Shown here: positions 21,189-50,496 of the stretch, piece by piece | How positions within the stretch are numbered: the stretch's first letter is position 1 | Layout: each line of letters opens with the position of its first letter | IMG/VR virus record: IMGVR_UViG_3300012921_000046 | Span: 629-64,628 of that record | Strand: one strand, 5' to 3' | DNA length: 64,000 nucleotides | Source of the DNA: a virus | Lineage: Duplodnaviria > Caudoviricetes | The notes under the pieces: model-generated | What the model saw: only the letters and a program-made list of their open reading frames with translations | Database searches by the model: none | Told to the model about the DNA's origin: nothing | Made by a program: the position numbers and the translations under genes

Positions 21189-21425
21189 GGGCCAGAGCGC
21201 GGTCGATGATGCGGGTCAGGTTAAGCCACTCCTGCGAGTCCATGCGCTTCCCTCGACTATGCCTGTCGGACTCCCAATCCTAGCAGGCGAACACACGTTC
21301 GTAAATGACGATCGGATGACGGCGCGACGCCAGCATTCGATACCGAGTCCCATCATACGATAAGCGACGAACACTCAGTACCGTACACATGCGGGGCGTG
21401 GTGTTTTCACCACGCCCCGCATGTG

Positions 21426-34772: not shown

Positions 34773-35063
34773 CTAGCCCTCCCATACCAATTCGCGCCAG
34801 TTTGGAGGAATGATACCATCGGCAAGGGCCTTGCTTATCATCCCCCGATGCCGGTTGTCAGCTCGCAGCACATGGCAGCGGCGACACAAAGTGCGGAGGT
34901 TGGATAACCCGTTGCCCCCATAGCGGCCGCTCTGAATGTGATCAATGTTGGCCGTTCGTTCCGTGAGAGGAATGCGACAGCGCACGCAAGTATAGCCGTC
35001 GCGCGCCAGGACAGCGCGCCGTGTTTCGGCCCATATCTCGCGCGGCTGCCGCTTTACTCCCAT
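34773..35063 (-). CDS. Small HNH endonuclease
   Basis: RDGYTCVRC...IDHI...GGNGLSNLRTLCRRCH. Confidence 0.9.
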   Translation of the reverse strand: MGVKRQPREIWAETRRAVLARDGYTCVRCRIPLTERTANIDHIQSGRYGGNGLSNLRTLCRRCHVLRADNRHRGMISKALADGIIPPNWRELVWEG

Positions 35064-35070
35064 TGTGTTT

Positions 35071-35133
35071 ACCCAACCCTGCCAGACCTAACCATGCCAT
35101 GCCAGACCTAACCTGACCCTACCACGCCCCACC
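35071..35133 (-). ncRNA. GGY-NN pentamer array 1 (putative vrRNA-type guide)
   Basis: GGT-GG-GGC-GT-GGT-AG-GGT-CA-GGT-TA-GGT-CT-GGC-AT-GGC-AT-GGT-TA-GGT-CT-GGC-AG-GGT-TG-GGT: 13 of 13 GGY units, 24 nt after the RAMP stop codon. Confidence 0.85.
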
Positions 35134-35157: not shown

Positions 35158-35742
35158 TTACCGCTCCTGAACGTCGAAACTCACAATCTCAAAGCGTCCG
35201 AACCCGATCCCCCGCCCGTCGCCCAACCCCGAGAGCACGCCCGCATCGCGGGCTACGGCCTCCATCTCGCCACGGCTCACGATGGTTTTGTCCCACAGAA
35301 TGCCGAACGCGGTCGTCCAGCCAGGCCCGGCCGCAATGCGATACCTGACATTGCGGCTTTTTGTTGCCGGGTTTCGCACAGAGGACACATGGAGGTATAC
35401 CGGCTGTGACTCGTCGCGGGTGATCGACTCGGGCATGTAGCGGTCGAACAGCAGACGGTCGGTTGTCACCTGAAGCGTGGCCGCCATAGCGGACTGAATG
35501 CTGCCCTTGCCTTTCTTCGTGTACTTTGCACCCTCCCGCAATACACTGAATGCATAAGTGCTCGGGAGATATAGTTGCCGATCCGAGGTATAGAGCACGG
35601 TTTTGCGCCACTCTTCCGGATCGTTGCCCGCCACGCCCGTGCGCTCTTGCTTCTCCAGAGGGATCGAGTCTGGGCCAAAGCAGTGCCACAGCAGCGGACG
35701 CACGCCCCGGATCATGATGGTTGCGGTCAACAGGTTGCCCAC
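35158..35742 (-). CDS. Solo Cas7/RAMP-like protein (Vipr-like)
   Basis: N-terminal IRGVRPLLWH, LYLPSTYAFSVLREGAK, C-terminal G-rich loop GLGDGRGIGFGRFEI typical of RAMPs; no other cas genes. Confidence 0.8.
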   Translation of the reverse strand: MGNLLTATIMIRGVRPLLWHCFGPDSIPLEKQERTGVAGNDPEEWRKTVLYTSDRQLYLPSTYAFSVLREGAKYTKKGKGSIQSAMAATLQVTTDRLLFDRYMPESITRDESQPVYLHVSSVRNPATKSRNVRYRIAAGPGWTTAFGILWDKTIVSRGEMEAVARDAGVLSGLGDGRGIGFGRFEIVSFDVQER

Positions 35743-37819: not shown

Positions 37820-37891
37820 AGTATACCATAGTGCAATCGCAATGTCAATACAATTAGAGCTATTGACATAGGGATACGCACTTGCTATAAT
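37820..37891. promoter_or_regulatory. Back-to-back sigma70 promoters
   Basis: Plus: TTGACA(37863-37868)-17-TATAAT(37886-37891); minus: TTGACA(37848-37843)-17-TATACT(37825-37820). Confidence 0.88.
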
Positions 37892-37928
37892 CGGGGCGTG
37901 GTGCTACTATCGGAATAGGAGAGTCGGC

Positions 37929-38207
37929 ATGCCAGAAAGCATCACTATGCCCGTCCGGAGCGCGGTGCCGCTGCTCATTGCTCGCATGAATGTGACGCGG
38001 GCTGAGCGTGGCATGCCGCCGTTAAAGCAGACAGAGATCGCTGCAAGTGCCGGTGTCTCCCAGTCCGTGATCAGTACGCTGTCCTCGGGCAAGTCGAAGC
38101 GGATTGACTTTGAGACGATCGATAGGCTTTGTGGCTTTTTCGGCTGCACACCAGGCGACTTGTTTATCAGGGAGCCTGATCCGGAGCCGGATTCCGGCGA
38201 CCAGTAA
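37929..38207 (+). CDS. Cro/C1-type HTH_26 regulator
   Basis: LKQTEIAASAGVSQSVISTLSSGKSKRIDFETIDRLCGFFGCTPGDLF. Confidence 0.88.
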   Translation: MPESITMPVRSAVPLLIARMNVTRAERGMPPLKQTEIAASAGVSQSVISTLSSGKSKRIDFETIDRLCGFFGCTPGDLFIREPDPEPDSGDQ

Positions 38208-38246: not shown

Positions 38247-38471
38247 ATGGCGATCAAACTGAAAACGTTCTGGATTCAGGAGGATGATCCGGGGCAGGCC
38301 CTCCAAATCGCTCATAGCAAAGCATTGGAGTTCTTCCACGACTCTAAGCTCACAGCACCCCAGGTGGTAACGATCAACGAGCAACTATCATCAAACCCGG
38401 CGAACGGCAAGACTATAGCGGTTGTTACGGTCTGGTACGACGACAGCAGGATGCCCCTCAGCGGTCAATAA
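38247..38471 (+). CDS. Small hypothetical protein
   Basis: AAGGGAG RBS; compact ORF. Confidence 0.65.
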   Translation: MAIKLKTFWIQEDDPGQALQIAHSKALEFFHDSKLTAPQVVTINEQLSSNPANGKTIAVVTVWYDDSRMPLSGQ

Positions 38472-38509
38472 AGCGGGCGGCGCTCGCCACGGGCGTGAAC
38501 GTGGCACCA

Positions 38510-38676
38510 TCCCCGCAAGGGGAAGACGATGGGGCGTGGTGAGGTATGGTACGGCGAGGTATGCCGAGGTATGGTCCGGTGAGGCTCGGTGGGGCATGGC
38601 TGGGCTAGGTGCGGCAAGTTAGGGATGCGCCTCCCGCGAAAGCGATCGGAAACTCCGGTCGCTTTCGTGCTTTTTT
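38510..38676 (+). ncRNA. GGY-NN pentamer array 2 (38533-38615) with 5' GNRA hairpin and 3' terminator
   Basis: 16 GGY plus one GCC unit at exact 5-nt period; TCCCC-GCAA-GGGGA upstream; GAAAGCGATCGGA-AAC-TCCGGTCGCTTTC and T6 downstream. Confidence 0.82.
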
Positions 38677-50033: not shown

Positions 50034-50496
50034 GAACGAGCCTCCTCCCTTGGTACACAATGGTCAGATGCACCGTGTTGACGGGCGACGGCGCCTGGTG
50101 CAGCCGCACAGCGAACGCGCCAGGCCAGGCCACCGACGAGCAGCGCCCCTCGGCCAGCGTGTGCAACCCATCGATCAGCCAGCGCACGCGACCATCCCAC
50201 CAGGGCAGGGCCGTGGACAGGCCGATGCTGAGCAGGAGGCCGTTGCGCTCCGTCAGCGTCGGGTTGGCGCTCACAAAGCCGGTGAAGGTCGCCTTCCACA
50301 GGTTGCCCCCATCGCCCGCCAGGTCGACCTGGAACAGCGAGTCCGACGTCGCCCCGATTTGCCGCATGCATCGGACGGTGCGCAGATCGCTATACTCGCC
50401 GTCGGTGCGGTAGCCCACCTCGCGCAGGGTCACCCGGCGGGGCGGGCCGAAAACCACGCCCCAGCGCCCCAACTCGCGGCATAGGTCGCGGCTCAC
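50026..50496 (-). CDS. Hypothetical protein
   Basis: GTG start overlapping the portal stop. Confidence 0.55.
   Translation of the reverse strand: MSRDLCRELGRWGVVFGPPRRVTLREVGYRTDGEYSDLRTVRCMRQIGATSDSLFQVDLAGDGGNLWKATFTGFVSANPTLTERNGLLLSIGLSTALPWWDGRVRWLIDGLHTLAEGRCSSVAWPGAFAVRLHQAPSPVNTVHLTIVYQGRRLVRG

Follow-up and report, generated by a model that had tools for sequence, protein, structure and literature searches.

A likely second VIPR guide RNA gene at the 3′ end of a divergent regulator unit in a temperate phage

The repeat tract at positions 38531–38617 (+ strand) of the window, by which we mean the whole 64-kb stretch of DNA analysed (64,000 nucleotides), most likely encodes a VIPR guide RNA (vrRNA), the second one of a temperate phage. 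VIPR, described for the first time in 2026, binds DNA under RNA guidance in a CRISPR-like manner and combines a minimal RAMP protein, Vipr, with vrRNAs composed of GGY/NN pentamers, where one protomer per repeat hides the GGY and the NN bases pair with double-stranded DNA such that every third target base is skipped (bioRxiv 10.64898/2026.04.26.720920,.720927). The reference type II systems are those of Escherichia phage SUSP1 and of a Pseudomonas fulva prophage (PDB 36pp; same preprints). GGYNN-type arrays have been recovered by language-model surveys, and solo vrRNAs of satellites and vipr-null phages redirect Vipr (bioRxiv 10.64898/2026.10.15.759431). The original prediction for the tract, here termed vrRNA-2, was a guide RNA with fixed GGY and programmable dinucleotides for the protein encoded at 35158–35742; this matches the VIPR literature, and the protein tests as Vipr. 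Likewise, the two guides for one effector that had been proposed conform to the published norm of several guides per effector.

The source contig is a 64.6-kb virus record that encodes integrases, a Prim-Pol, a protease-capsid fusion and a tape-measure protein, and we therefore regard it as a temperate phage; the locus has no match among GenBank phages (blastn). The VIPR concept itself is already published, from guides of the GGY/NN type and their one-base-skip code to solo guides and several guides per effector, and the vrRNA-2 finding opens no new question. Rather, we present a clear case of a temperate phage whose VIPR system is HNH-linked, together with modest additions, namely a recurrent divergent unit of regulator and guide, a 3′ signature of the clade, and a phage-specific 10-mer common to both guides and a promoter.

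Sequence reading together with a scan for GG in 5-nt phase places 17 GGY-NN units at 38533–38617, where a strict 5-nt phase is maintained through six GGY units, one GCC variant (38563–38565) and a further ten GGY units, and where the dinucleotide GG precedes the first unit (38531–38532). The variable dinucleotides read GT GA AT AC GA AT GA AT CC GA TC GG AT TG TA GC AA, so that the array length, the single GCC variant and the dinucleotides listed in the original prediction are all exact. The scan covered the entire 64-kb window, which has a G+C content of 67%, and recovered in-phase GG runs of 17 and 13 units (vrRNA-2 and vrRNA-1, respectively), with all other runs spanning five units or fewer; the two tracts thus lie far beyond chance. 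A vrRNA tract is defined by at least 4 (typically 9–16) tandem pentamers with a fixed GGY and a variable NN, of which vrRNA-2 has 17, with GGY in 16. This unit number differs from the 9–16 published for VIPR type II, and the dinucleotides of vrRNA-1 and vrRNA-2 differ from each other.

The heptamer GAGGTAT, noted before as an internal repeat, is present three times within vrRNA-2, and a perfect 10-nt duplication at 38555–38573, detected by TRF, repeats the dinucleotides GA-AT. Together with the GCC unit, this duplication fits growth of the array by slippage or recombination and could equally mark some decay, or a guide that was recently rearranged; the slippage put forward earlier is therefore consistent with the duplication rather than demonstrated by it. 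Taken to its end, decay would leave vrRNA-2 without function, as the duplicate of a guide array now out of use, a reading that could also draw on the lack of an adjacent promoter and on the target searches described below, in which vrRNA-2 found none. We consider this improbable, since GGY is retained in exact phase in 16 of the 17 units, and both the 3′ signature of the clade and a strong terminator are intact. In addition, the arrays of relatives contain occasional degenerate units, GCC among them (12 GCC in about 1000 units), and internal degeneracy is frequent in working vrRNAs according to the VIPR literature.

A reading of the tract as something other than a guide can be given almost no weight. 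An open 66-codon frame does span the tract, which might then belong to a Gly/Arg/Val-rich ORF, either at 38422–38622 on the + strand or as a 17-codon ORF with an ATG at 38529. The 5-nt period, however, shifts the codon phase of each successive GGY, and no reading frame can therefore explain the conservation; moreover, the period-5 GGYNN pattern is kept in 481 viral-contig arrays of unrelated dinucleotide content. The Gly/Arg/Val repeat peptide that was originally named as an observation that would overturn the guide was not found, as the translated frames across the tract are not repeat peptides. In principle, two-layer quadruplexes could form from GG runs spaced by 3 nt, such that a (GGNNN)n tract might act as a G-quadruplex element, but this model predicts neither the pyrimidine after GG nor the association with Vipr. 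Binding sites for a TRAP-like ring protein, CsrA-type sponges and Rho sites on the opposite strand were, like G-quadruplexes, dropped as candidates once the link to Vipr was established.

At its 3′ end (38613–38629), vrRNA-2 reads GGCAA, then GTTA, then GGGATG, which fits the signature of the clade, GGYAA followed by GGRWT. Of 65 distinct arrays of the relatives, 43% close with the dinucleotide AA, compared with a frequency of 6.5% for AA at internal positions, and a GGYAR unit is found among the last units in 51 of 67 clade arrays, usually followed by GGRWT. An intrinsic terminator with a 16-pair stem and a CTTTTTT tract follows at 38635–38676 (+) and is likely to form the 3′ cap or tail of vrRNA-2; the terminal arrays of the relatives L127, L133, L134, L135, L137 and L150 also run into a hairpin. 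In VIPR systems a structured 3′ tail that does not vary follows the repeats; the present end, GGYAA...GGRWT plus a terminator hairpin, differs from the pseudoknot tail of SUSP1, to which it has no similarity. Upstream of the tract, a CCCC-GCAA-GGGG hairpin (38512–38523, +) is present in the minimum-energy fold. Both of the structures that had been described as framing the RNA are thus present, although a counterpart of the hairpin was not found at the vrRNA-1 tract.

Both tracts start with TGGGGCGTGGT and end in GGY-AA, as originally predicted; in vrRNA-2 the start comprises 11 nt at 38530–38540 (+), and a common start of this length would arise by chance in about 1 in 2000 comparisons. Of the fixed ends that had been proposed, GGY-AA stands as a 3′ signature across the clade, whereas TGGGGCGTGGT was rejected as a family-wide 5′ handle, because the 481 other arrays, with 6601 units in total, contain a single in-phase copy, which is internal. 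A scan of the whole of IMG/VR for TGGGGCGTGGT yielded 10 distinct matches; that six of these stand where an array begins is no more than suggestive. The 3′ signature of the clade, the recurring position of the tract (see below) and the 11-nt start common to both tracts together assign vrRNA-2 to the VIPR system.

The 10-mer GGGGCGTGGT is present in six exact copies in the phage, compared with 0.27 expected. Two of these copies form the starts of vrRNA-2 (38531–38540, +) and vrRNA-1 (35121–35130, −), and another follows directly after the -10 box of a consensus promoter, in the region of the transcription start (37893–37902, +). Of the remaining copies, two make up the arms of a palindrome (21385–21425; perfect over 18 bp, GTTTTC loop) and one lies inside a coding region (50453–50462, −). 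We raise, as a rather doubtful suggestion, that GGGGCGTGGT is a phage-specific recognition element that ties the production of VIPR guides to the early regulatory switch. It may act as a 5′ element of the RNA, for Vipr nucleation or as the 5′ end of the guide, or as a DNA operator. As an RNA site, it would provide the regulator mRNA with a two-unit mini-handle at its start; were the suggestion true, the guides on either side of the divergent promoter would be deployed under different regulatory states.

The vipr gene (35158–35742, −) encodes a 194-aa RAMP/Cas7-like effector and is the single Vipr in the contig, being the one match of a Vipr HMM against the contig ORFs. The protein matches the PDB entry 36pp, "SUSP1 Vipr protein", with an E value of 7.4e-5 (phmmer against the PDB), and a profile of 29 homologues matches SUSP1 Vipr with an E value of 3.7e-10 over positions 8–190 (183 of 196 positions). 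An AF2 model (pLDDT 85) has its best Foldseek matches in Csm3/Cas7 backbone subunits, with E values of about 5e-9. By its sequence profile and predicted structure, the product is a Vipr with a Cas7/Csm3 fold, Viprs being minimal RAMPs built from an RRM core, a glycine-rich loop and a thumb.

In SUSP1 Vipr, the residues that contact GGY are H17, R138, D177, W178 and R179, with W178 stacking on the second G (bioRxiv 10.64898/2026.04.26.720927). Their counterparts in the profile alignment are H20, R135, D175, G176 and R177, respectively, such that four of the five contact residues are kept (H20, R135, D175 and R177), each being invariant or nearly so in the clade. The exception is residue 176, an invariant Gly in this Vipr clade in place of the stacking W178 of SUSP1, whereas the flanking D175 and R177 are conserved.

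The adjacent guide, vrRNA-1 (35069–35133, −), consists of 13 perfect GGY-NN units and lies 24 nt after the vipr stop codon and 5 nt before the start codon of a 96-aa HNH nuclease gene (34773–35063, −; Pfam HNH), the CxxC, DH, N and CxxCH motifs of which are intact. For comparison, we collected 39 related vipr loci from viral contigs, giving 40 with the present locus. A homologue of the 96-aa HNH protein (36–70% identity) is encoded directly downstream of vipr in 39 of the 39 related loci and is accordingly assigned as the accessory (vap) gene. By contrast, the KilA-N protein, the SWIM protein and the 211-aa ORF of the vipr operon have no counterparts in these 39 loci, which leaves vipr, one or more guides and the HNH accessory gene as the core of the system. 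GGYNN arrays lie beside vipr on the same strand in 35 of the 39 loci, and a comparison of L140 with L143, where the flanks of the array are common but the dinucleotides and the unit number differ, indicates that the guides vary.

We also note that the 3′ end of vrRNA-1 (window positions 35064–35073) overlaps the ribosome-binding site of the HNH gene. Similarly, arrays between vipr and HNH in relatives (L132, L140, L142 and L143) often have GGAGA as the last unit, followed by ATG. Judging from this sequence arrangement, binding of Vipr to the 3′ end of vrRNA-1 could gate translation of the HNH protein.

The setting of vrRNA-2 is distinct from that of vrRNA-1. On the + strand, a sigma-70 consensus promoter (37863–37891; 12/12 matches, extended -10 TG) is followed by a gene for a 92-aa Cro/C1-type HTH regulator (37929–38207; Pfam HTH_26, E 2.1e-14), by a 74-aa ORF of no assigned family (orf74; 38247–38471), by vrRNA-2 and by the terminator. 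Besides this promoter, which is 640 nt away, no promoter-like site was found upstream of vrRNA-2. Because the consensus promoter, the HTH gene as first gene of the unit, and orf74 precede the tract and its terminator, vrRNA-2 is read as the 3′-terminal part of a regulator transcript running divergently, rather than as a free-standing gene, and the "stand-alone" guide of the original prediction does not hold. Its distance of 2.8 kb on the opposite strand is correct as to the strand, but counts from the start of the vipr gene; from tract to tract the distance is 3.4 kb. A second promoter (37820–37848, −; 11/12 matches, extended -10 TG) heads the leftward vipr operon, such that back-to-back near-perfect promoters at 37820–37891 split the unit of HTH gene and guide 2 from an operon comprising the genes for SWIM, KilA-N, vipr, guide 1 and HNH.

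The divergent layout recurs in five relatives (L128, 3616–4005; L129, 4558–4908; L134, 4661–4988; L135, 4630–4904; L136, 1930–2394), in which arrays are present on the opposite strand 1.3–4 kb upstream of vipr. Each of these arrays lies directly 3′ of a small ORF, an arrangement matched here by the HTH gene, orf74 and vrRNA-2. In four of the five relatives the small ORF encodes a DNA-binding regulator, and these regulators are non-homologous (HTH_17, ribbon-helix-helix, HTH_3/26); the small ORF of L129 has no match to an HTH or ribbon-helix-helix regulator. Homologues of the 92-aa HTH regulator itself adjoin vipr in L131, L137/L138 and L157. Overall, 6 of the 40 loci examined have a guide that follows a small gene, mostly one for a regulator, on the strand not used by vipr, a layout that bears on the expression and timing of guides and that would be missed by annotation pipelines looking only beside vipr.

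The location of vrRNA-2 on the other strand, 2.8 kb from vipr and in a separate transcription unit, might suggest that it is not used for the phage's own targeting but serves as a decoy or solo vrRNA that redirects or titrates Vipr complexes, whether its own or those of a competitor. Solo vrRNAs that redirect Vipr are documented (bioRxiv 10.64898/2026.10.15.759431) and, like vrRNA-2, these solo or orphan vrRNAs lie away from a vipr gene in a small unit of their own; the target search for vrRNA-2, which found none, would also suit a decoy. Unlike the orphans, however, the phage keeps vipr and HNH genes 2.8 kb away, which makes vrRNA-2 a remote guide rather than an orphan. With a vipr gene of its own, a start and a 3′ signature in common with the vipr-adjacent tract, and a divergent layout that recurs in five vipr-positive relatives, vrRNA-2 is better read as an ordinary second guide, and we regard the decoy as unlikely.

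Targets were sought with the published one-base-skip code, a match being defined as at least 80% of the dinucleotides. In its own contig, guide 2 has no target with three or fewer mismatches, its best gapped self match being 20/30 (67%) and therefore below 80%; guide 1 likewise has no self-target at 80% (best 14/20), which agrees with the lack of self-targeting described in the VIPR papers. Two exact windows of 11 dinucleotides from guide 2 have no match in viral contigs, and the 3′ window has none in genome and metagenome contigs. A 3′ seed of nine dinucleotides yielded 0 viral, 4 genome and 6 metagenome matches, none of which extends beyond chance or lies in a long ORF in a codon-phased frame. 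A 5′ seed of nine dinucleotides yielded 12 viral matches, all in ORFs for peptides resembling D-I-T-D/E-I-D/E-I-P-E, and none of these fits the 3′ half of guide 2 (best 26/36). The core of guide 1 has no match in viral contigs, and neither guide rose above permuted-guide controls when compared with the 39 related VIPR loci and a further 120 loci with arrays. The exact-window and seed scans require a perfect match in the seed, and their sensitivity falls short of that of the nhmmer search in the VIPR papers, so that the absence of a target is weak evidence.

By analogy with the SUSP1 and P. fulva systems, vrRNA-2 would be transcribed, probably from the promoter at 37863–37891, together with the HTH gene and orf74, at the 3′ end of an RNA that would stop at the terminator, and would then be trimmed to a guide of about 90–150 nt, VIPR vrRNAs being about 100 nt long. 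Vipr protomers (35158–35742) would polymerise on this RNA, one per pentamer, thereby sequestering GGY and giving a filament of ~17 protomers. The exposed dinucleotides would pair with double-stranded DNA reading NNxNNx, where one base is skipped per unit, and, as in the reference systems, R-loop formation would begin at the 3′ end. The target would be set by about 15 dinucleotides (GA...GC) and in nature is presumably a competing mobile element. The gene content suggests that the HNH partner may turn binding into cutting of the bound DNA, as opposed to silencing alone.

The locus resembles the type II systems of SUSP1 and P. fulva in several respects: it encodes a ~200-aa Cas7-like Vipr with the G-loop motif GxGDxR..FGRF, it carries GGY/NN pentamer tracts in non-coding DNA with several guides per effector, and it is phage-borne, without CRISPR repeats and without a self-target. 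Consistently, no CRISPR array was found in the window, where the only Rfam match is a tRNA and TRF reports no repeat-spacer array. The accessory gene differs, being a 96-aa HNH nuclease here and the DNA-binding vap1 in the type II systems, as do position 178 of SUSP1 Vipr, which is W in SUSP1 and Gly in this clade, and the position of one guide, which follows a regulator gene on the other strand. As far as the figure legends of the preprint describe them, the nuclease-associated VIPR types III and V (HNH-containing Vap, fig. S21) likewise combine vipr with a predicted HNH and few guides per locus, and going by these legends the present HNH-linked clade looks like type III. Compared with types III and V as described there, the present clade was recovered from 39 viral contigs and resides, in the case studied here, in a temperate phage with integrases.

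A broader parallel is offered by the crRNA of class 1 CRISPR systems on its Cas7 backbone, where a RAMP filament also assembles on a guide RNA and the duplex is interrupted at regular intervals by thumb insertions, the guide being variable and flanked by fixed ends. VIPR differs in having neither a repeat-spacer array nor adaptation genes, and in its period of 5 nt with 2 pairing bases per subunit, as opposed to 6 nt with 5 pairing bases in class 1 CRISPR.

Beyond this clade, a pattern scan revealed that runs of at least 8 GGYNN units are common in viral contigs, with some exceeding 100 units. Very large GGCNN arrays were observed in L022 (6301–7015), L078, L003, L019, L025 and L069, the largest reaching 135 units in one run and more than 250 units in L078 (− strand, about 875–2432 in reverse-complement coordinates). 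These arrays are organized into higher-order units of 9–12 pentamers that end in a fixed GGCAG, GGCAC or GGCGT, and they are probably multi-guide or staggered VIPR arrays. In L128 and L135, an identical leader of ~15 nt, for example GTCTTAAGTTTTCGA in L128, precedes every array within the locus on either strand, which is suggestive of guide 5′ processing or promoter elements particular to the locus.
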